A DNA stretch of 28,150 nucleotides from Myxococcota bacterium (GCA_039028615.1 JBCCHT010000030.1:1-28150), one strand, 5' to 3'; shown: positions 12,090-28,150, counted from the first letter of the stretch. Numbers and translations are program-made. Notes: generated by a model from the letters alone, not told the origin.

Positions 12090-13058
12090 TCACCACAGCG
12101 GCAGGCCGCAGTCGGTCGGATAGCGGCACAGGTTGAACGCGGGATCCCAGCACGCGTACTCCCCGGTCGGCTCGTGGTAGCGGCTCTCGCAGCAGCTGGC
12201 GCAGGCCTCCTCGTAAGAGTGGAAGGTCGCGGACACGAAGCACGCCTCCACGCCCTGCGGGCAGCCATCGGGGTGCTCCGCCTCGTTGCAGGGCTCGCCC
12301 GGGCACCAGATACGACACGCGCCCGAGTCCTCGCACCCGGCGTTGTCGAGGCAGCTCCACGACCCCGGGCCTCCGGGTCCGTACGGCGACGGTGGGTCGA
12401 GGCAATCGCCGACCATCGGGCAATGGTTGCAGGTGCCGCCGTTCGGCCCCGCATCGCCGCACACCTGCCCTGCGCCGCAGTCCGCCGCGGGCGGCGGAGG
12501 GTCCCCCGGTAGCGGCGGCGGCAGGCCGGTGTCCACGACCTCGCGCTGGCAGCTCGCGATCGTGACCGGCACTTCGCCGTGCGAAAACGAGAAGGTCCAG
12601 ATGCCCGGCGCCAGATCGGTGGTGGGCCACACCCAGGTCCACGGCTCGCTCCCCACGATCTCCATCGACCCGAAGCTCGCCTGGCCGGGCCCCGACGCGG
12701 TGAGCTCGACCCAGGTCAGCGGCTCGCCGAAGGTGAAGCCGATCTCCGCGATCGAGCCCGAGCCGAGGACCTCGGGATTGAAGCTGAAGCCATCGTCGCA
12801 GGGCAGCACGGGCGGAGGCTCGCCGGAGTCGCTGCCCGGCAGGCCGTCGTCCGAGCCCTCGTCGGTCCCCTCGTCCGCGTAGGGCGGCACCCCGCCGTCG
12901 TCGTCGCTTCCCCCCTCGGACCCCGCCGACGTTCCGAACGACCCGATTCCCGGCCCCGACGCGAACGGCCCGCCCGACGAGCCCTCGCCGCAGCCCGAGC
13001 CCATCGCGATGCCCACGACGGCCGCGAGCGCGCACAACGTGTCTGCATGACCCCGCAC
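12090..13058 (-). CDS. Cys-rich secreted lipoprotein of unknown function.
   Basis: Start is GTG 13058 giving (M)RGHADTLCALAAVVGIAMGSGC with lipobox MGSGC. The ORF-track start is a TTG at 13097. An acidic Gly/Asp/Glu linker is followed by a beta-rich middle and a C-terminal ~130 aa with about 18 Cys (CNHCPMVGDC...CRIWCPGEPC...CASCCES). Confidence 0.55.
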   Translation of the reverse strand: MRGHADTLCALAAVVGIAMGSGCGEGSSGGPFASGPGIGSFGTSAGSEGGSDDDGGVPPYADEGTDEGSDDGLPGSDSGEPPPVLPCDDGFSFNPEVLGSGSIAEIGFTFGEPLTWVELTASGPGQASFGSMEIVGSEPWTWVWPTTDLAPGIWTFSFSHGEVPVTIASCQREVVDTGLPPPLPGDPPPPAADCGAGQVCGDAGPNGGTCNHCPMVGDCLDPPSPYGPGGPGSWSCLDNAGCEDSGACRIWCPGEPCNEAEHPDGCPQGVEACFVSATFHSYEEACASCCESRYHEPTGEYACWDPAFNLCRYPTDCGLPLW

Positions 13059-13128
13059 GTGACCGTAGTTGCCGGCCACGCCCGATGGTTCGAACAAAAT
13101 GCTCGAGCCCCGCGCGAACCGCGAGCGG

Positions 13129-15078
13129 TCATCCGACCACGAGCTTCTTGGGCGACCGCACGGGGCTCCACGTCGAGTAGCGGGGATAGTCGCGGGCGTA
13201 GTCGAAGCCGTTGCGGAACTGGCCTCCCGTGTTGCGGATGATCTGGATCACCGCGTCCAGCCCCCCGCGCAGGGCTGGCTCCGTCCAGCCCCCCTCGACC
13301 GAGAACGCCTCGCCCGCGAAGTAGATGCCCGACCTGCGGCTGGTCTCCTGGTTGTAGCGAAGCAGCGCGTAGTTGTCGTTCCACGAGCGCTCCCGGTAGA
13401 GCTTGGCGCAGCCGCGGTAGGTCGGCATCCGCTCCCAGTGAATCACCGCCGTGCTCGAAGGGTCGACGTAGGGCGAGATCGGCACGCCGATGTTGGTGCT
13501 CCGCACGAGCATCGCATCGAGGTACTCGAACAGCTCTCTCGCGAGCGCGTCGTCGTCATCGTCGGCGAGGAACTTGCTCGCGCCGTCTTCCCAGGTGTAG
13601 CTGACCATCAGCACCCCGGGCTCGCCGTCCAGCGCATAGCCGTAGACCCCTTGCAGCTGATTGTCGGTGGAGATGATCTGCGGGATCGGCTTGCCTGGCC
13701 CCCAGTAGCGCTCCTTCAGCGGGTAGAACACCTTGCAGCTGCGAATCCAGTGCGAGACCCGGAAGCTGTTGCGAACCGCGAAGGGCCACTGCTCCGCGTC
13801 GAAGCCCGCGAAATCGACCCCCATGCTGCGCTCGGTGGCCCAGGTGGTCGGGGTCAGCACGACGGCATCGTAGTCGCGCTGCAGACCCGCCGAGCCGATC
13901 GCGATCCGGCCGTCGGCGTTGCGCCGAATCGAGGTGACCGGATTACGAGTGTAGAGATTGACGTCGTAGTGCGGGGAGTTCAGCGCGTCGAAGAGCGAGA
14001 TGTCGACGACGTTGTCGCTGACCACGGGCTGGAAGAACAGGCAATCGGTGTAGGTCTCGATGCCGACGTAGTCGGGACCCGCGAACGAGTTGCCGAGATC
14101 GTCGAGCCCCGGTACCCCGCAGCGCGGCCCCCCACGAAAGCTCCCGTCCTCGTCGAAGAGCCCCTCGATCAGCTGCAGATCGGTGCCGTAGCCGAACAGC
14201 AGCGTGCGCATCACGTACAGGCAGGAGATGTCATAGAAGGCCCCCCACGCCCCATCGCCCGCGCCGATCGTATAGAACAGGTTCGACTCCGCCTCGGTCA
14301 TGCCCAGGCCGCCGAAGTAGCCGGGCCGCCGCGCGTCGTAGGCCTCGATGGCGTCCTCGAACACGAGGTCGCGGAAGTTCATCTCCCAATACCAAGAGAC
14401 GATGGAGTGCCAGCGCTCCTCCCAGTCGTCGCGGCCGTACCACTGCGCCACCTCGCGGGCGAACATCTCCGCGAAGTGCATCCACTTGTAGAACACCGCG
14501 GCCAGCTCCGGGGTCGGGGGCGCCTGTTGGTCGCGCGGCCAGATCAACAGCTGGGGCGGCTTCGACAGGTCGGGCGCAGGTCCGTGGCCATCGTTGATGT
14601 AGATCCCCGTGTCGTACGCGGCGGGTGACCCGGGGTTCGGAAAGTCGGAATGGGCGATCCGAAAACGATCGGTGTAGTAGCCCAGTACCGAGTTGAGTCC
14701 ACCCGGCTCCGTGAACAAGGGCATGCGCATCGCCCCCATCTCGAAGCAGGTATGCTGCCCCGGCGCAGGGATCGAGTACGTTCGGCCCCCGATGCGCTCG
14801 CTGGCCTCGTAGATGTCGAGGTTGGTGTAGCCGCTGCGGAACAGCTCGCGCGCGGCCGTGAGCCCCCCGATGCCGGCTCCGATCACCGCGATGCGCAGCG
14901 ACGGGTTCGTGTTCTTGCCGATCGACGACCGCGCCGCGTCCTGCAGCAGCTTGGCGTAGTTGAAGTTGAAATCGGCCGTGTTCGGCCACTGAAAGCGCCA
15001 TGGGTCGGCCTTCGTGCCCCGCCGCCGAAGGATCGCCCTACGGTCCAAGAACACGTCCATGCCTTTGTTGAGTGCCAT
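13129..15078 (-). CDS. FAD-dependent amine oxidase of the flavin monoamine oxidase family, similar to L-amino-acid oxidase or Trp/Lys 2-monooxygenase.
   Basis: 649 aa. The dinucleotide-binding motif is RIAVIGAGIGGLTAARELFRSGYTNLDIYEASERIGGR (GxGxxG...E...GGR). The C-terminal FAD-contact region is GIYFAGEAFSVEGGW. AAGGA lies 8 nt upstream of ATG 15078. No signal peptide. Confidence 0.8.
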   Translation of the reverse strand: MALNKGMDVFLDRRAILRRRGTKADPWRFQWPNTADFNFNYAKLLQDAARSSIGKNTNPSLRIAVIGAGIGGLTAARELFRSGYTNLDIYEASERIGGRTYSIPAPGQHTCFEMGAMRMPLFTEPGGLNSVLGYYTDRFRIAHSDFPNPGSPAAYDTGIYINDGHGPAPDLSKPPQLLIWPRDQQAPPTPELAAVFYKWMHFAEMFAREVAQWYGRDDWEERWHSIVSWYWEMNFRDLVFEDAIEAYDARRPGYFGGLGMTEAESNLFYTIGAGDGAWGAFYDISCLYVMRTLLFGYGTDLQLIEGLFDEDGSFRGGPRCGVPGLDDLGNSFAGPDYVGIETYTDCLFFQPVVSDNVVDISLFDALNSPHYDVNLYTRNPVTSIRRNADGRIAIGSAGLQRDYDAVVLTPTTWATERSMGVDFAGFDAEQWPFAVRNSFRVSHWIRSCKVFYPLKERYWGPGKPIPQIISTDNQLQGVYGYALDGEPGVLMVSYTWEDGASKFLADDDDDALARELFEYLDAMLVRSTNIGVPISPYVDPSSTAVIHWERMPTYRGCAKLYRERSWNDNYALLRYNQETSRRSGIYFAGEAFSVEGGWTEPALRGGLDAVIQIIRNTGGQFRNGFDYARDYPRYSTWSPVRSPKKLVVG

Positions 15079-16055: not shown

Positions 16056-16106
16056 GGCGTTTTCCTCTGCTCGACGACCAGCCTAAGCAATATCGCGGCC
16101 CGGCCA

Positions 16107-16122
16107 AGGCACACAGTGCGCA
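16107..16122 (+). promoter_or_regulatory. Candidate sigma-54-type -24/-12 element upstream of the membrane protein gene.
   Basis: aGGCACAcagtGCGCA has GG and GC with the 11-nt spacing of the TGGCACG-N4-TTGCA consensus. The -12 half is imperfect, GCGCA versus TTGCA. It lies about 135 nt upstream of ATG 16258. Confidence 0.2.
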
Positions 16123-16257
16123 ACAATCCGTGGCCGAATCTGGAACGATCGACGATTGTCCGCTCCGAGCCGGAATCGGACGCCGCAGCGCCCGGTTGCA
16201 CTTTTCGCCGAGGGCGTCATGGAGGCGCCCGGCACCCAAAAAGGAGACCGTAGTTTC

Positions 16258-17238
16258 ATGTGCACTGCAGGAGCAGGAGCCGTCCTCGACGCCATTTCGA
16301 GGATCCGCCGAGCCGAGCGTCAAATGGCCAGCCGCCGCGTCCAGCGGAGGCTCGTCCGCCCCAAGAGCCGCGAATGTGACACCCCCGATCGCTTCGACTT
16401 TCCCTGCTACTACCTGTGCTCGGAGTGCGGCTGGCTCGACCACGGCACCGCGCACCATCCCCATCGCCACGACGGCAGCGACACCACGCCGGGCGCCTGC
16501 CCTTCGTGCAACACCACCGCGTGGATCGATCTCGGCAACCGCAGCCTCTCCCAGAACTACCGCGACGCCGAGGCCTCCGAAGATCGCTTCGCGGCCGGGC
16601 ACTGGCGCCGCGCCAAGCTCATCCTCGGCGCGGGGTTGGGCGTCCTCGCGACGCTGGGAATCGCCACGGCCGTGCCGCTCATCGGTGAGTCGGGCTTGCT
16701 GCTCACCATCGTCGGCGGCCTGTCCTGGATGCTGGGAACCGCGGGCATCGGCGCGCTCATGGGACGTCGGGCTCGCGCCCATCGGCCTCCCCGCCGCTGG
16801 CGGCGGCCCCTGCCGGGCAAGAGCGTGACGGCCGAGTCCTCCGGCTCCAGCTTCACCCACGGTGTGCTCGAAGCCGAGGCCGACCTGCGTGCCCCCCTGA
16901 GCGGACAGCCGTGCGCCGCCTGGTCGATCCGCGTTCGCAGCGACCAGGGCCTGCTGCTCGACGAGCAGCAGCACGCCGCACTGGCCGTCGACGGTCGGGA
17001 GCTCGAGGGCAACACCGCCGCCCTCGACCTGGCGGGACACGAGGTCTACCGCCCCAACTCGAAGAGCCCCGAGTTCATCCGCTTCATGCAGCGCCGCGGC
17101 CTGTCCCCGCACGACGACTCGCTGCGCATCGAAGAGGCCTACCTGCGACCCGGGGTCCCCGTCGCGCTGTTCCGTCACACCTCGCCCCAAGGGCGCACGC
17201 TCATGCTGAGCCAAGCGCCCCGAGCCCTCGCCGCCTGA
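16258..17238 (+). CDS. Membrane protein with an N-terminal zinc-ribbon-like CxxC...CxxC and two TM helices. Function unknown.
   Basis: ATG 16258 is preceded by a perfect AAGGAG at 16241-16246. CYYLCSECGW...CPSCNTTAW are two CxxC pairs. TM helices are LILGAGLGVLATLGIATAVPLIG and LLLTIVGGLSWMLGTAGIGAL. An Arg-rich stretch is followed by a ~150-aa C-terminal domain. Confidence 0.55.
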   Translation: MCTAGAGAVLDAISRIRRAERQMASRRVQRRLVRPKSRECDTPDRFDFPCYYLCSECGWLDHGTAHHPHRHDGSDTTPGACPSCNTTAWIDLGNRSLSQNYRDAEASEDRFAAGHWRRAKLILGAGLGVLATLGIATAVPLIGESGLLLTIVGGLSWMLGTAGIGALMGRRARAHRPPRRWRRPLPGKSVTAESSGSSFTHGVLEAEADLRAPLSGQPCAAWSIRVRSDQGLLLDEQQHAALAVDGRELEGNTAALDLAGHEVYRPNSKSPEFIRFMQRRGLSPHDDSLRIEEAYLRPGVPVALFRHTSPQGRTLMLSQAPRALAA

Positions 17239-17260: not shown

Positions 17261-17293
17261 GAGGCCATCCCTTCCCCGGGATGGCCTCTTTTT
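17261..17293 (+). terminator. Rho-independent terminator of the membrane protein gene.
   Basis: Perfect 11-bp stem GAGGCCATCCC / GGGATGGCCTC with loop TTCCCC, followed by TTTTT. It is 22 nt after the stop at 17236-17238 and lies between convergent genes. Confidence 0.7.
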
Positions 17294-17306: not shown

Positions 17307-18053
17307 TCAGCCGTAGAGCAGCCAGCTGATGCCGAGGTTCAGCAGGATGCACATCACCGCGCCGTGGACGATGGCGCGGTTGGTCGCGACGCCGACGCCC
17401 TCGGCCCCTTCCTTCTTGGCCGCCCGGTAGCCGTGGAAGGTGGCGATGAGGGCGACGAGCCAGCCGAAGATGAGGCCCTTGAACATGCCGACGCCCAGAT
17501 CGGCGAGGCCGACGAAGACGTGGAGCTGGCTGATGAAGGTGCCGCCGTCGAGGCCGAGCTGGTACACGGCGCCCGCGTAGCTGGCCCCGATGCCGATGAC
17601 GTTGGCGTAGCCGCACAAAAGCGGCAGGGCGAGCGTGACCGCCCACAGGCGCGGCGCCACGAGGTGGCGCATGGGGTCGATGCCCATGACCTCGAGCGCC
17701 TCGACCTGCTCGCTGATCTTCATGTTGGCCAGGGCCGCGGCCAGGTTGGCGCCGATCCGCGCCCCACAGACCACGGCGGCCATGACCGGGTACAGCTCGC
17801 GCACGCCCCCCACGCCCGCGAACATGCCGAGGAAGTCTTGCCCGCCGAAGCGCTCGAAGGTGGCGTAGGACTGCACCGAGAGGTTGAGCCCTGCGAATAG
17901 GGTGAGCACGGTCAGCAGACCCACGCTGCCTACGCCCGCTTCGTAGGTGTGCCGCACCAGCGGACCCAGGGGCGGAACCTGGGAGAACTGGGCCACGAGC
18001 GCCTGGCGTACGAACACCAGGAACTCGGCGAAGACCTTCAGGGGCGAGTTCAA
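17307..18053 (-). CDS. MlaE/YrbE-family ABC transporter permease, paralogue 2.
   Basis: VVCGARIGANLAAALANMKISEQVEALEVMGIDPMRHLVAPRLWA aligns with the MlaE core [31 protein letters not shown]. The probable TTG start at 18053 overlaps the upstream gene's TGA (ATTTGA) and has an AGGGGCGGGGA SD-like run. The ORF-track N-terminal extension is antisense overlap. Confidence 0.75.
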   Translation of the reverse strand: MNSPLKVFAEFLVFVRQALVAQFSQVPPLGPLVRHTYEAGVGSVGLLTVLTLFAGLNLSVQSYATFERFGGQDFLGMFAGVGGVRELYPVMAAVVCGARIGANLAAALANMKISEQVEALEVMGIDPMRHLVAPRLWAVTLALPLLCGYANVIGIGASYAGAVYQLGLDGGTFISQLHVFVGLADLGVGMFKGLIFGWLVALIATFHGYRAAKKEGAEGVGVATNRAIVHGAVMCILLNLGISWLLYG

Positions 18054-18808
18054 ATCCCCGCCCCTAAAAGCGCCATGCTGACGACGTAGTCGACGAGCAG
18101 GATGAGCACGATGGTGTAGACCACCGTGTCGTTGGCGGCCTTGCCCACCGCCTCGGCGCCGCCGCGGGTGTTCATGCCCAGGTAGCCCGCGATGAGCCCG
18201 ACCGCCGTGCCAAAGAGCGCGCACTTGCCCAGGCCCACCCACAGGTCGGCGGGGGTGATCTGGGCGGTGAGGTGCTCGATGAAGGCCCCGTGGTTGACCC
18301 CGCCCAGCGGCACGGCAAAAAACCACCCCGAGACCAGCCCGAGCACGTTGGTCATCACGTTGAGCAGCGGGGTGACGAAGAAACAGGCGATGACGCCGGG
18401 CACCACCACATAGCGCATCGGGTCGACGGACATCACCGCGAGGGCGTCGATCTGCCCGCGCACGCGCATGGTGCCGATCCGCGCCGCGATGGAGGAGCCG
18501 GCCTGCGCCGCGACCATGACCGAGGCCAACGCGGGGCTGTACTCGCGGAAGATGGCGGTGCCGAGCAGCGAGCTGAGCATGCGCTCGAGGCCGAACATGC
18601 GGAAGATCTCCAGCCCCTGCAGCGAGATCACGGCCCCGATGGGCGCCACCGCCAGTCCCACGGGGAGGATGCAGCGCTTGACCAGGGCGGCCATGATCCG
18701 CACCGTCTCCGCGATGTAGCGCGGTCGCGTCGCGGCGATGTAGAGCACGTCCCCGAAGAAGGCGAACATCGCCCCGATCGTCGACAGCATCTGGAGGATG
18801 GGGCGCAC
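18050..18808 (-). CDS. MlaE/YrbE-family ABC transporter permease, paralogue 1.
   Basis: VMVAAQAGSSIAARIGTMRVRGQIDALAVMSVDPMRYVVVPG is a clear MlaE-family match (PF02405) with multiple TM segments. The start is GTG 18808, or ATG 18790. Confidence 0.8.
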   Translation of the reverse strand: MRPILQMLSTIGAMFAFFGDVLYIAATRPRYIAETVRIMAALVKRCILPVGLAVAPIGAVISLQGLEIFRMFGLERMLSSLLGTAIFREYSPALASVMVAAQAGSSIAARIGTMRVRGQIDALAVMSVDPMRYVVVPGVIACFFVTPLLNVMTNVLGLVSGWFFAVPLGGVNHGAFIEHLTAQITPADLWVGLGKCALFGTAVGLIAGYLGMNTRGGAEAVGKAANDTVVYTIVLILLVDYVVSMALLGAGI

Positions 18809-18821
18809 GAGCGCGTCGTTT

Positions 18822-19775
18822 TTAGCTCACCTCGTCGGAACCGAACAGCTCCGCGAGCGCGCCGACCAGCGCGTCGTCGGGGCGGCCGCCGACCGCGGCG
18901 CGAACCCGCGTGGCGAGGCCCGAGTCGTGGGCAAAGGTGGCCAACGCCTGGAGCGCATCCTGGGCCTCGCCGCGGGAGCCATCCTCGATCCACTCGAGCA
19001 GGGCCGCCCAGGCCGCTTCGGTCCGCAGCATGGCGATGCCCAGCATCAGCACCGAGCGGCGCCCGCTCAGCACGTCGAGCTCCACGCGCTCGCGCAGGGG
19101 CACCAGCGCGTCCGCGAGCCGCGACTCGCCCAGCGCCAGCGCGGCCGCTTCGACGATGGCCTCGTCGGAGGAGCGCAGCAGCTCGGCGACAAAGGGCAAG
19201 CCCGAGCGCGAGGCGAGCTGCAACAGCGCCACCAGGCATTCCCCCAGCACGTCGGGGTCCGGCTCGCCCGCGGCGATGCGCAGGCGCAGCAACGGCTCGC
19301 CCACCTCGACGTTGCCCGACGCCGCGATCGCCCGCGCGGTGGCGGTGCGGGTCGCGACCTCGGGATCGGCCAGGCCCTGGGCGGCCTCGACCATCGCCCG
19401 CGGATGCCCGCGCTCGGCCAGCGCCATCAGGCACACCCCGCGCAGCTCGGCCGCGCTGTCGACCTTGCCGCCCCAGACCGGCTCGTGTTGCACGTAGCGA
19501 GCGCCCCGCACGAACAGCTCGTCGTCCCCCGCGTCCGCATCACGCAGACGTTTGACGATGGCCGTCTTGCCCGTGCACTGCGGGTCGCGTTTGTTCGGGT
19601 CCTTGCACAGGCGCTCGAACGCGGGGCCCAGGCGCTCGAGCAAGTCGGGAAGATCGCCGAGGGCCGGGATCGCGGTGGCGATGAGCAAGCCGCTGGTGCT
19701 CGCCAGGGCGCGCACGATGATCTTGCGTGCATCCGGGGCGGTCGGGTCGGCCACCGCCTCCCGCAGCGCGGCCAT
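18822..19775 (-). CDS. HEAT-repeat (PBS-lyase type) protein.
   Basis: ATG 19775 (MAALREAVADPT) lies 17 nt after the methyltransferase stop. The ORF-track GTG at 19865 would overlap that gene. It has Ala/Leu/Glu-rich helical repeats such as SDEAIVEAAALALGESRLADALVPL and DPEVATRTATARAIAASG. It ends 13 nt before the first permease. Confidence 0.7.
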   Translation of the reverse strand: MAALREAVADPTAPDARKIIVRALASTSGLLIATAIPALGDLPDLLERLGPAFERLCKDPNKRDPQCTGKTAIVKRLRDADAGDDELFVRGARYVQHEPVWGGKVDSAAELRGVCLMALAERGHPRAMVEAAQGLADPEVATRTATARAIAASGNVEVGEPLLRLRIAAGEPDPDVLGECLVALLQLASRSGLPFVAELLRSSDEAIVEAAALALGESRLADALVPLRERVELDVLSGRRSVLMLGIAMLRTEAAWAALLEWIEDGSRGEAQDALQALATFAHDSGLATRVRAAVGGRPDDALVGALAELFGSDEVS

Positions 19776-19792
19776 CCGCTGGTCGAAGCTCT

Positions 19793-20392
19793 TCAAGTCG
19801 CGAACAACCCCAGCTGGCGATCGTCGACGACGTCGGGGCGCCGCGGACCGCCCTTGGGTGACCACGCGGGCACCTGCCGTCGGCGCTCGAGCTCGAGCAG
19901 CCAGCGCTTGGCCTCGAGACCCCCGCCGAAGCCGGTCATCGATCCATCCGCCCCCACGACCCGGTGACAGGGCACCACCACCGCGATGGGGTTCTGTCCG
20001 TTGGCCAGCCCCACCGCCCGCGATGCGCCCGGGTTGTCGAGGCTCTTGGCCTGCTGACCGTAGCTGCGCGTCTGACCGAAGGGGATGTCGATCAAAGCCT
20101 GCCAGGCGCGGCGCTGGAAGTCGGTGCCGAGCAGCCGCAGGGGAAGGTCGAAGTCACGTCGCTGCGCCGCGAGGTACTCGTGCAGCTGAACGACCGCGGG
20201 ACTCTGGTCACGGTCGTCCTCGACCAGCTCCGCCCCGTGGCGCTCGACGAAGCCCGCGAGGTCCTTTGTTCGTGACTCGGTGTCGAACCAAAACCCGAGA
20301 TAGACGAGCACGTCGTCGGCATCGACCACCACCGTCAGCGGCAGCTGCGAGTGCTTCATCCAGGTCACCCGAAACAGTTCGCGGGCCGTCAC
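19793..20392 (-). CDS. ogt: Methylated-DNA--protein-cysteine (O6-alkylguanine) methyltransferase.
   Basis: It has the active-site PCHRVV and the helix-turn-helix IPFGQTRSYGQQA...NPIAVVVPCHRVVGADGSMTGFGGGLEAKRWLLELE. The N-terminal domain is PLTVVVDADDVLVYLGFWF. The start is GTG 20392, or ATG 20359. Confidence 0.85.
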   Translation of the reverse strand: MTARELFRVTWMKHSQLPLTVVVDADDVLVYLGFWFDTESRTKDLAGFVERHGAELVEDDRDQSPAVVQLHEYLAAQRRDFDLPLRLLGTDFQRRAWQALIDIPFGQTRSYGQQAKSLDNPGASRAVGLANGQNPIAVVVPCHRVVGADGSMTGFGGGLEAKRWLLELERRRQVPAWSPKGGPRRPDVVDDRQLGLFAT

Positions 20393-20520
20393 CCCGCCTT
20401 TTTAGCCCGAATTCGAGGAGCACACGGCCGGGTCGAGAAAATTTGACTCGCCTGCCCGGGGCTCGCAGCATCGGAGGGGTGAGTCCCTCGGCCCCATCGC
20501 GCTGGCGCGCGCGCATCGAC

Positions 20521-22131
20521 ATGTTGACCGGGGAAGGGCGCTGGCGGGCATTGTTGGCGGCGGGAGCCGTGGTGGGCCTGGGCGCATACTGGAGCTGCGC
20601 GACCTCGATCCCGCCAGAGACGATCGCGGTGAACGGCGCGGAGTCGCCGAGCGCGCCGGAGCCCGCCGCCGAGGCGAGCGGGACCGACCCCGAGCCCACG
20701 CCCACCGACGAAGAGCCGCCGCTGCTGCCCGTGCTCAACAAAGAGGCGCTCACCGCCCGGCTCGCGGCCCAGCAATCGCTGCTCGGCAAAGACCTCTTCG
20801 AAGACGCGCAGGGCAAGCCCATCCCCTGGATCACCCCGCAGGACGAGATTCCCGGGGGCGGCGACGGTCCGGGCTCGAGTTCGGCCGACGACACCTTGCT
20901 CGACAGCCTGCCCGGCTCCTCCGGCCTGGGCGGGACCGACGGGGCGAGCACCGGGCGGGTCATCAACGGCAACGCGCTCGGGCTGTTCGTGCCCATCGAG
21001 GCGCCCCCCGGCGGCGAGTCGCCGCTATCGAACTTTTACGCCGCGCTCGAAGACCTGCGAGCGGGCAACGACCCCGACGGCAAGGTCCGCGTGCTCGTGT
21101 ACGGCGGCTCGCATACCGACGCCGACGTCTACACCCAGTACCTGCGCCGCTACCTGCAGCAGCGCTTCGGCGACGGCGGGCACGGCTTCGTGCAGGTGGC
21201 CAAGCCCTGGCGGTGGTATCGGCACGTCGACTACCGGGTCGAGGGCGCCAAGTACTGGAAGACCGAGCACGCCCAGCGCCGCAGCGGTCGCATGGACGGG
21301 CTCTACGGTCTGATGGGCTGTAGCCTCGCCGCCAAGAACAAGCGCGCCTTCGGGCGCGTGATCCCCCGGGGCGAGTCGGTCGGGGCCGAGTACGACCTGC
21401 TGTTCTTGCGCCAGCCCAAGGGCGGCAGCTTCAAGCTCCTGGCCGACGGCAAGGTCCTGAAGACCATCAAGACCCGCGCCGACGCGTTCGAGCCGGGGCA
21501 CCACCGCTTCACCCTCCCCGAGGGTCAGCACGAGATCGAGATCGACCTCATCGGCAACGGCGAGGTGCGGGTCTTCGGCATGACCATCGAGCGCGAGCAG
21601 CCGGGCGTGGTCATCGACACCCTGGGCATCGGCGGCACGCGGGCGGCCAACATGCTGAACTGGAACGAGGAGATCTGGGCCGACAACGTCAAGGCCCGCG
21701 ATCCCAACCTCGTGGTCATGTTCTACGGCACCAACGAAGCCACCGACGCCGACCAGCCGATCCGCAAGTACGAGCGCGACCTCCGAGAGGTGCTGAAGCG
21801 CTTCTCCACCATGGCCCCGCAGGCGAGCTGCTTGTTGATGGGTCCGGGCGACTTCCCCCGCAAAGACGAAGAGGGGCGCTGGCACAACCGTCAGCGGATC
21901 GACGACATCATCGAGGTGCAGCGGCGCGTGGCGGCGGAGCACGGCTGCGGCTTCTGGGACACCAAGGCCTTCATGGGCGGTGAGCTGTCGATGACCCGCT
22001 GGGCCGCCGCGCAGCCCCCCATGGCGAAGCAGGACCACATCCACTTCACCAAGCGGGGCTACGTGCGCATCGGCATGGCGCTGGTCGACGCGATGATGGT
22101 CGAGTTCGACGGCGGCAGCCTGACCGACTGA
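20521..22131 (+). CDS. SGNH/GDSL-type hydrolase with an N-terminal signal-anchor and an acidic linker.
   Basis: ATG 20521 gives MLTGEGRWRALLAAGAVVGLGAYW, hydrophobic. The 859-aa ORF upstream of it is antisense to the methyltransferase and HEAT genes. SGNH blocks are VLVYGGSHTDAD (block I, the Ser-containing motif replaces GDS), MFYGTNEA (block III) and DHIHFTKRGY (block V, D..H). Confidence 0.7.
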   Translation: MLTGEGRWRALLAAGAVVGLGAYWSCATSIPPETIAVNGAESPSAPEPAAEASGTDPEPTPTDEEPPLLPVLNKEALTARLAAQQSLLGKDLFEDAQGKPIPWITPQDEIPGGGDGPGSSSADDTLLDSLPGSSGLGGTDGASTGRVINGNALGLFVPIEAPPGGESPLSNFYAALEDLRAGNDPDGKVRVLVYGGSHTDADVYTQYLRRYLQQRFGDGGHGFVQVAKPWRWYRHVDYRVEGAKYWKTEHAQRRSGRMDGLYGLMGCSLAAKNKRAFGRVIPRGESVGAEYDLLFLRQPKGGSFKLLADGKVLKTIKTRADAFEPGHHRFTLPEGQHEIEIDLIGNGEVRVFGMTIEREQPGVVIDTLGIGGTRAANMLNWNEEIWADNVKARDPNLVVMFYGTNEATDADQPIRKYERDLREVLKRFSTMAPQASCLLMGPGDFPRKDEEGRWHNRQRIDDIIEVQRRVAAEHGCGFWDTKAFMGGELSMTRWAAAQPPMAKQDHIHFTKRGYVRIGMALVDAMMVEFDGGSLTD

Positions 22132-22140
22132 GGGCTCGAG

Positions 22141-23319
22141 CTAGGGTCCCGTCGGCTCGTCGACGAGTTCACACGGCAGGTAGGGTCCAACCACCTCGAG
22201 GGTGTCCTCGCCGCTGCCGACGATCTCGTCGACGCCGTCACCATCGACGTCCACCACCGCGATGGGCTCGAAATCGGGGCGCTCGAGGCCGATCCCCTGC
22301 ACGAGGTTCACGCCGCCCGCCTCACCGAAGCTGAGGCTCAGCGAGCTCCCCGCGCCTTGCATGTGATCGAAGACGCCGTCACCGTCGAAGTCACCTCGCA
22401 GATCGGACGAGACGTTGGTGCGCGCGATCAGGCTCCCGCTCTGAACGGAGAAGATCGTGTCGTTGATGAAGACCTCGTCGCCGGAGTCCGTGAGGAACTC
22501 GCCCAGCGAACGCAGCACGAGCTCGTTCGTAAAGTCAGTCGCGGCGTCTTGGGTGAAGGAGCCATCGAGCCCGACCTCGAACACCGCGACGCGCGTTTCC
22601 TCGTCCACGAGACCACAGGAGTCCTTCACCCCTCGCGCGGCGAACCGGGTGGCGCCGTCCCAGTGGGCCACGAGCTGCTCGATGCAGTAGATGTCGGAGT
22701 GAAACTCGCCCTCCTGTGCGAGCTCGTAGGTGCGATCGGGCAGCGCCCGATAGCTGTGCAGGTCGTCGCCCTCGTGGACCATGACGATGTCGAGCACGCC
22801 GTCGCCATCGAAGTCCATGAAGTCCGCGTTGGTACCCAAGAGTAGGCCGGGGAGCTCCTGCTCGACGACCACGGGCTGACCCGTCTCGAGCGGGCCGTAG
22901 GCCACCGCGACGCGAGCCGTACCGAACATCCCGAGATCGACGTGACCATCGCCGTCGATGTCTCGCAGGTGCATCCGGGTGGAGGACAAAAAGAAGCCCA
23001 GGTCGAGTTCGAAGGCCGGACGGCGCTCGAAGGGCGGCCCCCCCGGGGTCCCCGTCAGCAGGGTGACGATCCAGAACTCGCCCGTCCCCAGGTCGTTCGT
23101 GCTGATCCCGACCAGGCTGCCCATGCCGCTGCCATCGACGCGACCGGCGACCCAGCGCTCGGGCAGCAGCGGCGGATCGAGCTCGACGATGCGGATCGGA
23201 TCGAAGCAGTTCCCCTCGTCGGCGTCGGCGGCGGACGACGGATCCTCGGGGAGCAGAACGCACGCCGACCCCAGCACCGCGACCGCGCCGAGGGCCAAAC
23301 TACGCCAAGCCAAGTTCAT
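22141..23319 (-). CDS. FG-GAP/VCBS-like repeat lipoprotein.
   Basis: ATG 23319 gives MNLAWRSLALGAVAVLGSAC with lipobox LGSAC. It repeats D-x-D-G-D-G calcium-binding-like motifs: DIDGDGHVD, DFDGDGVLD, DFDGDGVFD, DVDGDGVDE. It is the C-terminal 392 aa of the fused 868-aa track ORF. Confidence 0.65.
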   Translation of the reverse strand: MNLAWRSLALGAVAVLGSACVLLPEDPSSAADADEGNCFDPIRIVELDPPLLPERWVAGRVDGSGMGSLVGISTNDLGTGEFWIVTLLTGTPGGPPFERRPAFELDLGFFLSSTRMHLRDIDGDGHVDLGMFGTARVAVAYGPLETGQPVVVEQELPGLLLGTNADFMDFDGDGVLDIVMVHEGDDLHSYRALPDRTYELAQEGEFHSDIYCIEQLVAHWDGATRFAARGVKDSCGLVDEETRVAVFEVGLDGSFTQDAATDFTNELVLRSLGEFLTDSGDEVFINDTIFSVQSGSLIARTNVSSDLRGDFDGDGVFDHMQGAGSSLSLSFGEAGGVNLVQGIGLERPDFEPIAVVDVDGDGVDEIVGSGEDTLEVVGPYLPCELVDEPTGP

Positions 23320-23381
23320 CACGCTGGATGATGACACGCGGTTCGAGCTTGCGCCTGGCCCAGTGGCGAACTGACGCATTG

Positions 23382-24503
23382 TTACCAGCCGTCGTCCCCG
23401 TAGGAAGCCCCCGAAGACAACGACACCAACGAAACCCGATCCTCCAGTCGCACCAGGTTCTTCTCGTCGCGGATGGCGAGCTGCACGGAGCCCTCCTGCC
23501 AATCGATGTCGATCGTCCCGAAGTTGGACTGGGCGACCATGGGCCCGCGACGATGCTCGTTGACCTCGTTGGGATGCGCGCGCGGGCGATTGAGACTGCT
23601 GGAGGTCAGGTCGATGAGGGGGTAGCCGATGGGGCTCCCTTCGAGCACCGACAGCTCGGCGTGGTGACGATCGCCGCTGAGCACGAGCACCCCATTGGCT
23701 CCGGTTTCCGCGATGAGCGAGAGCAAGCGTCGTCGCTCGCGGGGGAACACGCCCCAGCGCTCGTAGTCGTGGCCGTCGGCGACGAACTGAACGCTCGAGA
23801 TCAGCAGCCGCAGCTCGGCCGGCTCCCGTAGCTGTTGCTCGAGCCAGGTCCACTGCGCCTCGCCGAGGATCGTGTCTTCGGGATCTTCGCTCCGCTGGTA
23901 GCGACCGCGCGCCGCGGTACGGGACAGCTCGCTGCGAAAGTAGCGGGTGTCGAGCAGCAGCACCTGCACCCGCTGCCCCTCGGGCCCGAACACGTCCGAG
24001 CGATAGACCCCTGGCCGCTGGCGTCGCGGCGAGTCGGCGGGCTCGGCAAAGAAGTCGAGCATCGCCTTTTGCGAGACGTCCCGCAGCGGGTACTCGCTGC
24101 CCGCATCGTCCCGACCGAAGTCGTGGTCGTCCCAGGTCGCGAGCACGGGCGTGGTGGACCGTATCCGCCGCAATCCCTCGCTGCGGGCCTGCTGCGCGTA
24201 GGCTTCGCGCAGCGACGCCTCGTCCTCGGCGTTGGCGTACACGTTGTCCCCGATCAGCAACAGCAGCTGCGGATCGTAGGCCTCCACCGCGTCCCAGATC
24301 GGCTGCGGCCGCTCTTGATCGAGGCACGAGCCGAACGCGACCCGGGTGAGCACCTGCTGAAGGTCGGGCATGGGCCCGGGCAGCGGCTCGATCGGCGGGC
24401 CCGCCAGCGCCCCGGCGCAGCCCCCCGATGCGAGCAAGGAAGAGCCACCGACGGTGAACCACCGTCGGCTCAGTCGCGGTCGTCGCGGGGCATGGGCGCT
24501 CAT
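23382..24503 (-). CDS. PhoD-like phosphatase (metallophosphoesterase) with a Tat-type signal and lipobox.
   Basis: ATG 24503 gives MSAHAPRRPRLSRRWFTVGGSSLLASGGC. SRRWF is a twin-arginine motif and LASGGC is lipobox-like. PhoD-like motifs are LLIGDNVYA, ATWDDHDFG and LVLSGDRHHAEL. Confidence 0.8.
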   Translation of the reverse strand: MSAHAPRRPRLSRRWFTVGGSSLLASGGCAGALAGPPIEPLPGPMPDLQQVLTRVAFGSCLDQERPQPIWDAVEAYDPQLLLLIGDNVYANAEDEASLREAYAQQARSEGLRRIRSTTPVLATWDDHDFGRDDAGSEYPLRDVSQKAMLDFFAEPADSPRRQRPGVYRSDVFGPEGQRVQVLLLDTRYFRSELSRTAARGRYQRSEDPEDTILGEAQWTWLEQQLREPAELRLLISSVQFVADGHDYERWGVFPRERRRLLSLIAETGANGVLVLSGDRHHAELSVLEGSPIGYPLIDLTSSSLNRPRAHPNEVNEHRRGPMVAQSNFGTIDIDWQEGSVQLAIRDEKNLVRLEDRVSLVSLSSGASYGDDGW

Positions 24504-24538
24504 GGCCGCGGACCATAGCGCACTCGGGCCTCGCGGCG

Positions 24539-25327
24539 TCAGCGGATCGGTCGGATCTCCAGCTCGGGCTGGTGCCCGTTGCGGACCCACGGCGTCCCCT
24601 CGCAGCCCTCGAAGTAGAAGCGGGCGCCGTCGATGCTCCCCTTGGCCTCGACTTCGACCTCGACCATGCCATCGACGATGCAGCCCGCCGCTTCGTCGAA
24701 GGCGAGGTCCCAGGTGGTGAAGGTGTTGACGTCGCCGACGCCGTCACCGGGCCAGATCCCCGCGACTTCCCCCCGACCGGGCAAGTTCACCCGCGAGCGC
24801 ATCTCCAGGTCGCCGATCATCCGGCCATCGCCCAGGTTCAGGTGCCCCCGCAGCTCGAAGAAGTTCATGCCGTCGGTCCCGGAACCAGAGCTGATGCGCA
24901 GGTCGTAGTCGACGGTCAGCGGCGTCAGGCTCACCCGGCCGTTGATCGTGCCGTTGTCCGTGATGCAGTTGGAGTAGACGAACCCGGTGGAGGGGTGGCC
25001 GGACGTGCAGCCCGGGTGGATTCCCGGCGGGATCTCCCCGGACGCCCAGATCGGGTTTTCGCTGCCGCGCACCGCCAACGCCGACAACCGGGCCATCAAC
25101 GAGTGCACCTCGAAGGCGCGAACCGGGTCCGAGACGCCTCGACGCGTCGCATTGGCGGACCGCGTCATGGCCCCGAGGATCTGCGCCGCTTCTTCTTGTT
25201 CTTCCGTGGGCGCCCGGGGTTCGCCGTAGTCGATGCTGGTGGTACAGGCCCCGAGCACGAGCAGGCACGGGGTTGCGAGAATGGTTCCGATGCTGAATGT
25301 ACGCGTTGTTCCTATCGTCGACCTCAC
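24539..25327 (-). CDS. Lipoprotein of unknown function.
   Basis: GTG 25327 gives (M)RSTIGTTRTFSIGTILATPCLLVLGAC with lipobox LGAC. It lies 36 nt upstream of phoD on the same strand. I checked the frame by hand translation from the track start at 25510. Confidence 0.5.
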   Translation of the reverse strand: MRSTIGTTRTFSIGTILATPCLLVLGACTTSIDYGEPRAPTEEQEEAAQILGAMTRSANATRRGVSDPVRAFEVHSLMARLSALAVRGSENPIWASGEIPPGIHPGCTSGHPSTGFVYSNCITDNGTINGRVSLTPLTVDYDLRISSGSGTDGMNFFELRGHLNLGDGRMIGDLEMRSRVNLPGRGEVAGIWPGDGVGDVNTFTTWDLAFDEAAGCIVDGMVEVEVEAKGSIDGARFYFEGCEGTPWVRNGHQPELEIRPIR

Positions 25328-25544: not shown

Positions 25545-28150
25545 TCAGCGGTGCTCCTTCAGCCACTGGCGAGCCTTCTCGAGGTCGTCTTCGTAGGCCT
25601 CGCTCGCCGACTCGTAGCGCCGCACCGATTCCTCGGCCATCTCGATCGCTCGCGCTCGGTCGCGGTGCGGTCGCTCGATCGCCCACAGGAACTGCGCGAG
25701 CACGAAGGCCGTCTCGGCCTGGGCCCCCGCGGGGATGCCCTCGCCCTTTCGCTGCGCCCACGCGCGCTCGATCAGCGGCAGCCCCTCCGACGCACGCCCC
25801 AATCGGAGCAAGACCAGCGCCAGGTCGACGCGCAGCTGGATGGTCCGTCGATGGTCGGGCCCGCTCGCGGCCTCTCGCCGCGCCAGCAGCTCCCGGAACT
25901 CGACCTCCGCCTCGACGTTGCGCCCGCGATCCAAGAAGCTGTGGGCGAGGTTCCTCCGGGCATCCAAGGTCGCGGAGTGATCGGGGCCGAGCGCCTTGCT
26001 CCACAGCTCGATCGCCGCCCGATACTCCCGATCCGACTCCTCGTACCGGCCTTGGCCCGCGAGCGCGTTGGCGATGTTGTGAAGCGAGGTCGCCACCTCG
26101 GGGTGCTCGGGGCCGAGGGCCTCCCGCCGAATCGCCAGCACCGCTCGATGCTCGGCCTCCGCCTCCTCGTGCCGCCCCAGGGCATTGAGGCTGGACGCCC
26201 GGTTGTTGCGCGCGGTGATCGTCAGCGGGTGCCCGGGCTCGAGCGCCTTGCTCAGCAGCTCGACCGCGGCTCGGAACTCGACCTCGGCCTCCTCGTAGCG
26301 AAGCTGGGTCGCCAGGGCAGCCCCGATGTTGATGTGGGTGTAGCCGACCTTGGGGTGCTCGGGGCCCAGCTGCCGGATGATCAGCGTCTGGGTCGCGCGG
26401 AGCTGCTCCTCCGCCGCGTCGTGCCGCCCTTGGCTCTGGAGCACGAGCGCGAGGTTGTTCCGCAGCCCGGCGATCTTCGCGTGGTCGGGACCCAAGGCTC
26501 GCGACTGCACTTCGATCGCCGCTCGGTACTCCCGCTCCGCGTCCTCGAACTTGTCTTGCTGATCGAGGGCCACCCCGAGGTGGTTGCGCGCGGACGCGAC
26601 GATGGGGTGCTCCGGGCCGAGGACGCGCTCGCTCAGGGCGACCGCCTGCCGATGCTCGGCCTCCGCCCCCACGTAGTCACCCTGGTCCGTCAGCACGCGG
26701 CCGATGTTGCTGTGCGCCGCCGCGACCGCAAAGTCGTCGGGACCGAAGTGCTCCGTGAGCAGCACGAGCGCGGCCCGGTGCTCGACCTCCGACTGCTCGT
26801 ACTTGCCTTGCGCCGACAGGATTCGTCCGAAGATCCCGTGGGCCCGCGCCTCGTTCCGCGGGTCGTCGCGCGAGAGCCCCTTCACCAGCGGCCAGTAGCG
26901 CAGCGCTTCGTCCATGCGCTGCAGCTCGATCCCCACCACGTCCATCAGCAGCCGGGCCGCGGCCACCGTGTCGTCTCTCTGGTTCCATTGCATGGCCAGC
27001 TCGAGCGCGCGGACCAGGGCCGCCTCGGCCTCGTCGTAGCGGCCGAGCTTCTCGAGCACGCTGCCCTCGCGGAGCACGAGCTCGGTCTGGACCGGGCCGT
27101 ACTCCACGCCCTCCCGCGCGGCCCGAGCCTCCTCCACGGCCTCGAGCGCGGGCTGGTAGCGACCCGCCAGCTCCTCGCTCCCCGCGTGGGCCAGCGCGCG
27201 CCGGATCGCCTCCACCGCGTCCGCCTCCTCGGGCCGCGGCGGCTCGACATCGGCGGTCAGCGCTTCGAGATCGGCGCACCGCGACAGCTCGGGAAGCCCC
27301 GAGGTCAGCTCGTGGGCATGCTGGGCGACCTCTTCGTCGGCGCTCGCCAGGGTATCGACCGTCGCCCGTAGATCGACCGCAGCCCGACGCAAACAACCCA
27401 TTCGCAGGTCGAGCACCCGCGAGGACTGCTCGCCGCGGACCGTCGTGGCCTCGCAGGCCTCGGTGTGCATCGCCGTCCACCCGTCCGCGTACAGATCGAG
27501 CTCGCGGACCGTACGCGTCGACACGCCGTCGACGAAGCCCTTGCCGATGGACGACAGCGATCCCTCGACCTCCCCGCGTCGCGCGTCGTCCCAGACCCCG
27601 GCCAGCTGCTCGCGTGCCCCCGTGCAGCGCTCGGGGGCGGCGTCTCCCCAGGTCTTCAGCGTCAGTCCGCCGAGGCCGAAGACGAGCACCCCGGCCCCGC
27701 CCAGCAGCCAGCGGTTGCGACGCTGCGTGGGGTCTCGGCTCAAGACCTCGAGCAACGGGCGCATCGACGGCCAGCGCTCGTCCGGCTCCACCGCCAACCC
27801 GCGGCGCAGCGCATCGACGATGGTCCGAGGCACGGCGGGCGCGTCGTCGGGCCAGGGCGGTGGCCCGGCGAGCTTGGCCGCGAACTGCTGCTCGAAGTCG
27901 GATTGCGGGAAGGGGCGCGTACCCGTCAGCCCCTCCCAGACCGCCACACAAAAGCCGTATTGATCGCTACGAGCATCGACCGCGGCCACCTGGAACTGCT
28001 CGGGGGCCATATAGGCCGGCGTCCCCATCACCGAGCCCGTCTGCGTCAGCTGGGACGACAGCGTGGAATTCGAGCCCGTCGGAGCATGGAGCGACGAAGA
28101 CTCGGACTCTCCATCGGTGGTGGCCCGAGCCAGCCCGAAGTCGAGCACCT
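25545..28150 (-). CDS. Ser/Thr protein kinase with one TM helix and a C-terminal TPR (kinesin-light-chain-like) array. The N-terminal kinase part runs off the window end.
   Basis: The ORF enters the window at kinase subdomain VII (K)VLDFGLA, then GTPAYMAPEQ (subdomain VIII). The TM helix is WLLGGAGVLVFGLGGLTLKTW. About nine 42-aa TPR units follow with the recurring motif LGPEHP/LGPDHP...NLA..L..QGRYEEAE. Stop is TGA at 25545-25547. Confidence 0.85.
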   Translation of the reverse strand, partial: VLDFGLARATTDGESESSSLHAPTGSNSTLSSQLTQTGSVMGTPAYMAPEQFQVAAVDARSDQYGFCVAVWEGLTGTRPFPQSDFEQQFAAKLAGPPPWPDDAPAVPRTIVDALRRGLAVEPDERWPSMRPLLEVLSRDPTQRRNRWLLGGAGVLVFGLGGLTLKTWGDAAPERCTGAREQLAGVWDDARRGEVEGSLSSIGKGFVDGVSTRTVRELDLYADGWTAMHTEACEATTVRGEQSSRVLDLRMGCLRRAAVDLRATVDTLASADEEVAQHAHELTSGLPELSRCADLEALTADVEPPRPEEADAVEAIRRALAHAGSEELAGRYQPALEAVEEARAAREGVEYGPVQTELVLREGSVLEKLGRYDEAEAALVRALELAMQWNQRDDTVAAARLLMDVVGIELQRMDEALRYWPLVKGLSRDDPRNEARAHGIFGRILSAQGKYEQSEVEHRAALVLLTEHFGPDDFAVAAAHSNIGRVLTDQGDYVGAEAEHRQAVALSERVLGPEHPIVASARNHLGVALDQQDKFEDAEREYRAAIEVQSRALGPDHAKIAGLRNNLALVLQSQGRHDAAEEQLRATQTLIIRQLGPEHPKVGYTHINIGAALATQLRYEEAEVEFRAAVELLSKALEPGHPLTITARNNRASSLNALGRHEEAEAEHRAVLAIRREALGPEHPEVATSLHNIANALAGQGRYEESDREYRAAIELWSKALGPDHSATLDARRNLAHSFLDRGRNVEAEVEFRELLARREAASGPDHRRTIQLRVDLALVLLRLGRASEGLPLIERAWAQRKGEGIPAGAQAETAFVLAQFLWAIERPHRDRARAIEMAEESVRRYESASEAYEDDLEKARQWLKEHR
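25860..27000. repeat. Tandem ~126-bp coding repeats (TPR units) inside the kinase gene.
   Basis: The motif GGGTGCTCGGGGCC(G/C)AG, the reverse complement of LGPEHP, recurs at roughly 120-126-bp intervals near 25990, 26110, 26232, 26355, 26475 and 26600. Boundaries are approximate. Confidence 0.6.

Follow-up and report, generated by a model that had tools for sequence, protein, structure and literature searches.

Why do two tandem permease genes of the MlaE family stand in one compact gene cluster with a DNA repair gene and a HEAT-repeat gene, and with neither an ATPase gene nor an MCE gene beside them? The question is raised by a 28,150-nt stretch of DNA from a Myxococcota bacterium (GCA_039028615.1, JBCCHT010000030.1:1-28150; the whole stretch is called the window below), whose nearest relatives are Nannocystaceae, including Paraliomyxa miuraensis. 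Four minus-strand open reading frames (ORFs), ogt, the HEAT gene, mlaE1 and mlaE2, occupy positions 17307-20392. An earlier description made from the sequence by itself (the sequence-only reading) had taken them for an undescribed arrangement in which orphan permeases are functionally paired with a DNA repair enzyme and a HEAT protein. Related loci do not bear this out: they show an mlaE1-mlaE2-mlaF-mlaD operon, and mlaF persists unlinked in the clade of the window. Most probably, the four genes represent the front half of an ogt-mlaE1-mlaE2-mlaF-mlaD operon that is conserved among Nannocystales; here it has lost the linkage to its ATPase and MCE genes and has gained the HEAT gene. The cluster is thus an ordinary, lineage-specific rearrangement of a two-permease Mla-like operon and not a new system. 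The genes of the cluster, in the order of transcription, are:

19793-20392, minus strand: ogt, O6-alkylguanine-DNA alkyltransferase (MGMT), first gene of the cluster (PF01035, TIGR00589, PCHR motif)
18822-19796, minus strand: gene for a HEAT-repeat (PBS-lyase/alphaRep-type) alpha-solenoid protein, 324 aa (PF13646, E = 3e-14)
18050-18808, minus strand: mlaE1, first MlaE-family permease paralogue, 252 aa, GTG start (PF02405, E = 1e-61)
17307-18053, minus strand: mlaE2, second MlaE-family permease paralogue, 248 aa, TTG start (PF02405, E = 1e-60)

The window has a G+C content of 65-73%, and the G+C content at third codon positions (GC3) of the four ORFs is 0.85-0.96, a coding-type codon-position pattern. 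Pfam and NCBIfam matches agreed with the gene identities proposed earlier, and the tight packing of the four genes on the minus strand was confirmed at these coordinates. The HEAT stop codon is separated from the mlaE1 GTG by 13 nt, and the mlaE1 stop codon overlaps the TTG start of mlaE2 by 4 nt (TTGA), both as described before. The 17-nt gap between ogt and the HEAT gene had to be abandoned: it assumed a downstream ATG at 19775, while the TTG start of the HEAT gene gives a 4-nt overlap with the ogt stop codon, again TTGA. The NCBI annotation adopts the same TTG start for an identical protein of 324 aa (MEM7157589.1), and the MlaE1 sequence is identical to the consecutive entry MEM7157588.1. 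Both entries belong to a contig of 156,150 nt in a metagenome-assembled genome labelled Myxococcota bacterium, and the window is a slice of this contig. The four genes are presumably co-transcribed.

Neither an ABC ATPase nor an MCE/MlaD homologue was found in the 28,150 nt, either by Pfam scans of plausible ORFs or by tblastn (E ≤ 1e-3), for which two MlaF and two MlaD orthologues from linked loci served as queries. Pfam domains of MlaB (STAS), MlaC and MlaA were likewise not detected among the ORFs of the window, the rest of the genome not being searched for them; these proteins may be encoded elsewhere. Within these 28 kb, the statement that mlaF, mlaD, mlaC and mlaB are not encoded in cis therefore stands.

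Layouts of related loci and the unlinked partners

For a survey of related loci, one genome per GTDB species was scanned with an MlaE1 alignment. This yielded 67 loci (the prefix L marks locus numbers throughout), which were classified by tblastn and placed on a neighbour-joining tree of MlaE1 plus MlaE2, a quick distance tree with two Sericytochromatia loci as the root. A divergent GDSL gene, then mlaE1, mlaE2, an ABC_tran gene and an MlaD gene make up the locus of Pseudenhygromyxa (L011) and that of Nannocystis pusilla (L012), with some of the gaps not exceeding 13 nt. Such a contiguous layout, with a gap of at most 182 nt between mlaE2 and mlaF, was present in 37 loci including the Sericytochromatia outgroup, and all basal Nannocystales clades share it except for locus L070. 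An interrupted layout was found in 10 loci of the sister clade, where 309-7331 nt of foreign genes lie between mlaE2 and mlaF. These inserted genes (radical SAM, ECF sigma, Spondin_N-like, pirin-like) are unrelated and often on the opposite strand. The third layout is that of the window clade (the window, L006/7, L008, L010, L013, L016 and L018), in which no mlaF-mlaD was found within 8-17 kb downstream. L014 also belongs to this clade, and with only about 1 kb of downstream sequence it is uninformative. In the simplest reading, the layout of the window clade would be the outcome of a progressive break-up of a single operon. Seemingly orphan permeases may thus be half of a split operon, and the series from contiguous through interrupted to unlinked loci is a caution for the reading of similar loci.

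Two of the loci with contiguous mlaE1-mlaE2-mlaF-mlaD lie outside the Myxococcota (L075, 3992-7357, and L079, 10007-13234; Candidatus Sericytochromatia/uncultured bacterium), with an MlaE1 identity of 38-44%. Their two-permease layout implies that the duplication of the permease gene is ancient or was transferred between phyla. In four basal loci from metagenome-assembled genomes (MAGs) of Polyangia/Myxococcales (L055, L057, L061 and L064, at about 12350-14550), mlaF is followed by two MlaD-type genes in tandem, which brings them a step closer to the multi-MCE arrangement known from actinobacterial Mce loci.

The sequence-only reading had proposed a search for unlinked partners, which was successful for genomes of the clade. 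In MAG GCA_039194325.1, contig 259 (L018) harbours mlaE1-mlaE2, and contig 40 (L081) an ABC_tran-MlaD pair around which no mlaE occurs within 10 kb. The 11.1-Mb contig with ogt-mlaE1-mlaE2 (L010) also encodes an MlaF orthologue (P0372) outside the flanks of ±10 kb, and in P. miuraensis a contig of 800 kb (L013) bears mlaE1-mlaE2 and another, of 713 kb, encodes MlaF (WP_266221756.1). Among themselves, the unlinked MlaF proteins share 88-94% identity, and an identity of about 71% to the linked MlaF of Pseudenhygromyxa marks them as orthologues. An mlaF orthologue is retained in every clade genome that could be checked, and in the two neighbourhoods that were read (L080 and L081) mlaF still adjoins MlaD. 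For the genome of the window itself the search did not locate the partners: its own MlaF was not among the listed members of the protein clusters looked up.

The separation of the two halves raises the possibility that the permease pair is now served by a different ATPase/MCE set, taken from a paralogous system, or otherwise by altered partners. The halves are physically unlinked in the window clade, and there is a precedent in mycobacteria, where MceG is encoded at an unlinked locus and serves several Mce permease sets. We regard such an exchange as improbable. The ancestral MlaF is kept at 88-94% identity and stands beside MlaD in L080/L081, which argues that it has retained its job.

According to the reading as a split operon, the ancestral Nannocystales operon would have comprised a divergent GDSL gene followed by ogt-mlaE1-mlaE2-mlaF-mlaD. 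MlaE1 and MlaE2, as old paralogues, would most likely pair as a heterodimer and so provide the membrane part of an ABC lipid transporter of the Mla/MCE type, powered by a dimer of the MlaF-type ATPase and capped by a ring of a single MlaD-type MCE protein. In the lineage of the window, an insertion of unrelated genes would have parted mlaE2 from mlaF, with mlaF and mlaD coming to lie elsewhere in the genome. The permeases would then be orphaned in appearance only, the complex being assembled from the products of two transcription units.

The two permeases

MlaE1 and MlaE2 matched PF02405 with 208.7 and 205.3 bits, respectively (gathering cut-off 22.5), and covered positions 2-211 of the 212 in the profile. 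The two proteins are about 36% identical to each other. They occur in tandem in every related locus, each being orthologous to its counterpart there, so that the analogy to the YrbEA/YrbEB heterodimer pairs drawn in the sequence-only reading is reasonable. By analogy, MlaE1 and MlaE2 probably form a heterodimeric permease. MlaE1 is 73% and MlaE2 71% identical to the first and the second permease, respectively, of the contiguous mlaE1-mlaE2-mlaF-mlaD operon of Pseudenhygromyxa. Identities of MlaE1 amount to 88-97% within the clade and 66-75% across the order, and it is far better conserved than the products of the neighbouring genes.

Scores for more specific families remained below the cut-offs. 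TIGR00056 (trusted cut-off 212.2 bits) scored 171.5 for MlaE1 and 166.5 for MlaE2, and NF033619, which describes MlaE proper (cut-off 315 bits), 140.7 and 168.3. Compared with solved structures, MlaE2 was closest to proteobacterial MlaE (106-116 bits, versus 70 for YrbE1A), and MlaE1 was equally close to YrbE1A (90 bits) and to MlaE of Pseudomonas aeruginosa (89 bits). No clear one-to-one correspondence of MlaE1 and MlaE2 with YrbEA and YrbEB emerged from this comparison with solved structures; the duplication of MlaE may be independent of that of YrbEA/YrbEB.

Codon-level comparison with the counterpart locus L006 gave ratios of non-synonymous to synonymous substitution rates (dN/dS) of 0.05 for mlaE1, 0.06 for mlaE2, 0.10 for ogt and 0.17 for the HEAT gene. 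At the amino acid level, the permeases are 96-97% and the HEAT proteins 85% identical between the two loci. All four genes are under purifying selection, and the permeases are the most constrained of the locus. These values bear on the view that the permease pair is a decaying remnant of a broken-up transporter, which would fit the lack of an ATPase or MCE gene in cis. A remnant is very hard to reconcile with intact reading frames and a GC3 of 0.94-0.96 for mlaE1 and mlaE2, with an MlaE1 that is 88-97% identical across the clade and with permeases that are the best conserved proteins of the locus; the dN/dS values of 0.05-0.06 rule it out, and we consider it the least probable of all readings.

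The ogt and HEAT genes

Ogt matched PF01035 with 113.9 bits (E = 3e-33) and TIGR00589 with 113 bits (E = 5e-33; cut-off 46.4), and contains the active site VVPCHRVVG. The N-terminal half gave no Pfam match. The ORF opens at GTG 20392; judged by the lengths of homologues, ATG 20359 (188 aa) is the likelier start. As in other suicide alkyltransferases of the Ogt/MGMT type (TIGR00589), a C-terminal DNA_binding_1 domain with the PCHR active-site cysteine is present; unlike a typical ogt, the gene of the window is the first one of a lipid-transporter operon. By its sequence, Ogt appears to be a normal alkyltransferase with its active site, and nothing apart from the gene linkage ties it to lipid transport.

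In 45 loci, scattered across the tree, an ogt orthologue precedes mlaE1, and the PCHR motif was conserved in 45/45. In 17 of these loci, the tblastn alignment ended no more than 12 nt from the mlaE1 start or overlapped it. On the other hand, ogt was absent upstream of mlaE1 in Nannocystis species and in several Enhygromyxa. We therefore treat the ogt-mlaE1 linkage as an old one that was lost repeatedly, and as a case of long-lived co-transcription. Three relatives carry insertions between ogt and mlaE1: an opposite-strand radical-SAM gene in L014 (2443-3849, minus strand) and 6-9 kb of genes in L018 (3260-9260) and L013 (1100-10010). This junction seems to be a rearrangement hotspot in the window clade.

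All 46 sequences in an alignment of the HEAT family matched PF13646, and a profile of the family retrieved only alphaRep/PBS-HEAT proteins from the PDB sequences (E down to 1e-33). The predicted model of the window protein has a pLDDT (predicted local distance difference test) of 96.7; its solenoid consists of 20 helices and includes a single beta-hairpin, at residues 104-113. PF08713 (DNA_alkylation) was matched by none of the 46 family members, even at E ≤ 1. The HEAT protein is a generic solenoid and, by sequence profile as by fold, not AlkD/AlkC-like. The family comprises over 200 homologues of about 320 aa with the invariant residues D71, C74, K77, Q103, E105, P106, G109, D113, R119, D144 and R150, and the motif Q-x-E-P-V-W-G-G corresponds to the beta-hairpin inserted in the solenoid. 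From the alignment, the invariant residues between positions 71 and 150 look like a defined binding or catalytic site.

The four-gene block ogt-HEAT-mlaE1-mlaE2 was found only in the window, L006/7, L008 and L016, with HEAT identities to the window of 85% in L006 and L007 and 61-63% in L008 and L016. The 4-nt overlap of ogt and the HEAT gene is shared by L006 and L008. Elsewhere the HEAT gene stands alone among unrelated neighbours, with identities of 59% in P. miuraensis, 57% in the 11.1-Mb genome, 47% in another MAG and 41% in metagenome contigs. The 11.1-Mb genome (L010) has ogt-mlaE1-mlaE2 without a HEAT gene, and a distance of about 1.8 Mb separates this block from the HEAT homologue of the contig. 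Stand-alone homologues and the HEAT-less L010 mark the HEAT gene as a late, clade-restricted insertion between ogt and mlaE1. With respect to the synteny check proposed by the sequence-only reading, the four-gene order did recur in L006/L007, L008 and L016, and ogt-mlaE1-mlaE2 recurs across the order; the HEAT gene did not keep this company elsewhere.

These distributions also bear on the idea that the four genes are a true functional module, in which an orphan MlaE heterodimer is assisted by the HEAT protein, for instance as a cytoplasmic accessory subunit in place of MlaB or of the ATPase contact, and in which Ogt is an integral part of a new system connecting alkylation damage with the handling of membrane lipids. 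The tight packing with its overlapping stop and start codons would be in line with a module, as would the recurrence of the block in three other lineages (HEAT identity 62-85%), the purifying selection on all four genes and the order-wide adjacency of ogt and mlaE1. We nevertheless judge it unlikely, as HEAT homologues of 57-59% identity lie far from the permeases in the 11.1-Mb genome and in P. miuraensis, more distant ones have unrelated neighbours, the sister genome L010 has ogt-mlaE1-mlaE2 without HEAT, and many genera have mlaE1-mlaE2-mlaF-mlaD without ogt. Moreover, MlaF orthologues are retained and the HEAT fold is a generic solenoid.

A narrower link would be a pairing of ogt with the HEAT gene for the repair of DNA alkylation, in which the HEAT protein is an AlkD/AlkC-like glycosylase or DNA binder and which merely shares the transcript of the transporter. 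A precedent is given by AlkC and AlkD, repair proteins for alkylated DNA that are built of HEAT-like repeats. The translational coupling of ogt and the HEAT gene by TTGA, with the same 4-nt overlap in L006 and L008, points in this direction, and the invariant polar residues D71, C74, K77, Q103, E105, D113, R119, D144 and R150 suggest a defined site. Against these points stand the missing PF08713 match in the 46-sequence alignment even at E ≤ 1, the restriction of the hits in the PDB profile search to alphaRep/PBS-HEAT proteins, and the fact that most members of the HEAT family are not located beside ogt. A repair pair thus appears doubtful, to about the same degree as the four-gene module.

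In the reading as a rearranged operon, the second change in the lineage of the window would be the insertion of a free-standing HEAT gene between ogt and mlaE1, where it would have become translationally coupled to ogt. Ogt would have been co-transcribed with the transporter genes for a long time, with no sign of a role of either Ogt or the HEAT protein in lipid transport.

Several points weigh against this reading. The neighbour-joining tree is a distance tree that carries no support values, and the HEAT-bearing loci are not cleanly monophyletic in it. Both permeases score below the TIGR00056 cut-off and hence, as far as profile scores can tell, are divergent members of the MlaE family and not the proteobacterial MlaE equivalog. 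We infer the heterodimer and its assembly with the relocated MlaF and MlaD from knowledge of the family, and likewise a position elsewhere in the genome for the mlaF-mlaD genes of the window strain, which were not located. Finally, the order-wide ogt-mlaE1 linkage is more persistent than is usual for random hitch-hiking, which leaves a small probability for a functional tie.

There is accordingly a slight chance that the ogt-mlaE1 adjacency, the later coupling of the HEAT gene, or both reflect a real functional link. Transporter and Ogt could, for example, be regulated together in a response to alkylating or lipophilic toxicants, which the transporter would meet at the envelope and Ogt in the DNA. 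Alternatively, the permease pair, whose ATPase gene is no longer co-translated, could have acquired the HEAT protein as a new accessory factor in the cytoplasm.

Comparison with known transporters and the flanking genes

The permeases of the window are PF02405 members like those of MlaFEDB from Escherichia coli, Acinetobacter baumannii and P. aeruginosa (PDB 6XBD, 6IC4, 7CH8), and orthologous loci encode one MlaF-type ATPase and one single-MCE MlaD directly after the permeases. Unlike MlaFEDB with its one homodimeric MlaE, two distinct permease genes (about 36% identity) are present. In addition, mlaF-mlaD lie outside the permease operon in the lineage of the window, no gene for MlaB, MlaC or MlaA was seen in the window, and the Nannocystales MlaD is longer (344-356 aa) owing to a long C-terminal extension.

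With the actinobacterial Mce systems (YrbEA/YrbEB, MceA-F and MceG; Mycobacterium smegmatis Mce1, PDB 8FEE), the cluster shares two tandem MlaE-family permeases that presumably form a heterodimer. Differences are the lack of six tandem mce genes, the relatives having one MlaD or, in a few basal MAGs, two; the position of the ATPase gene, which is beside the MCE gene here and not beside the permeases; and the host, a diderm myxobacterium. In actinobacterial Mce systems, the MceG ATPase is encoded away from the permeases, as is the ATPase in the window clade. With two MlaE subunits and a single MlaD, the Nannocystales and some Sericytochromatia would stand between proteobacterial Mla and actinobacterial Mce. 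In the literature searched, we found no description of two-permease Mla systems or of Mla in Myxococcota or Nannocystis; such a two-permease Mla-like transporter could serve as a simple model for heterodimeric MlaE permeases.

Three further features flank the cluster:

17261-17288, no strand assigned: GC-rich hairpin between convergent genes (11-bp stem, followed by TTTTT on the plus strand only)
20360-20520, no strand assigned: intergenic region (about 161 nt) that separates the divergent ogt and GDSL genes and presumably holds the promoter of the cluster, read from the sequence
20521-22131, plus strand: gene for a GDSL/SGNH hydrolase-like protein, exported or membrane-anchored (PF13472, E = 3e-17)

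The GDSL/SGNH hydrolase-like protein has about 540 aa and an N-terminal hydrophobic segment. In nearly all Nannocystales loci examined (L006-L073), its orthologue is the divergent neighbour on the upstream side of the mla block, regardless of the presence of ogt, the HEAT gene or mlaF-mlaD. As a putative functional partner of the lipid transporter, the hydrolase is a stronger candidate than Ogt or the HEAT protein. The persistent ogt-mla linkage and this conserved divergent neighbour might be small leads for research on the myxobacterial envelope. A sigma-70 consensus scan of the intergenic region 20360-20520 gave no match, a consensus that is uninformative for a myxobacterium with 69% G+C.

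The hairpin downstream of mlaE2 is as strong as the sequence-only reading had described it: the 71-nt region has a folding energy of -40.1 kcal/mol (z = -3.15). Its orientation calls for a correction. On the operon strand, the hairpin is preceded by A5 and no U-run follows; since the T-run is on the plus strand, the element is, as judged by sequence, the intrinsic terminator of the convergent gene at 16087-17238.

At its other end, the window breaks off within a kinase/TPR gene (25545-28148, minus strand). Ser/Thr kinases with TPR repeats also follow the relocated mlaF-mlaD genes in L078 (3959-6391), L080 (11925-12999) and L081 (11933-14806). The window kinase is about 31% identical to the kinases beside mlaD, those of L080 and L081 being 63% identical to each other, and the 339-aa gene adjoining it has no counterpart in the L078, L080 and L081 loci. 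The window kinase is probably a paralogue, and a location of mlaF-mlaD just past the right end of the window, considered on account of this gene, found no support.

Between the GDSL gene and the kinase, an 868-aa ORF (22141-24747, minus strand) shows an atypical GC3 of 0.68. In L006 two separate genes correspond to it, one for a PhoD-like protein (373 aa) and one for an FG-GAP protein (397 aa); a fusion, a frameshift or read-through of two genes may account for the ORF of the window.

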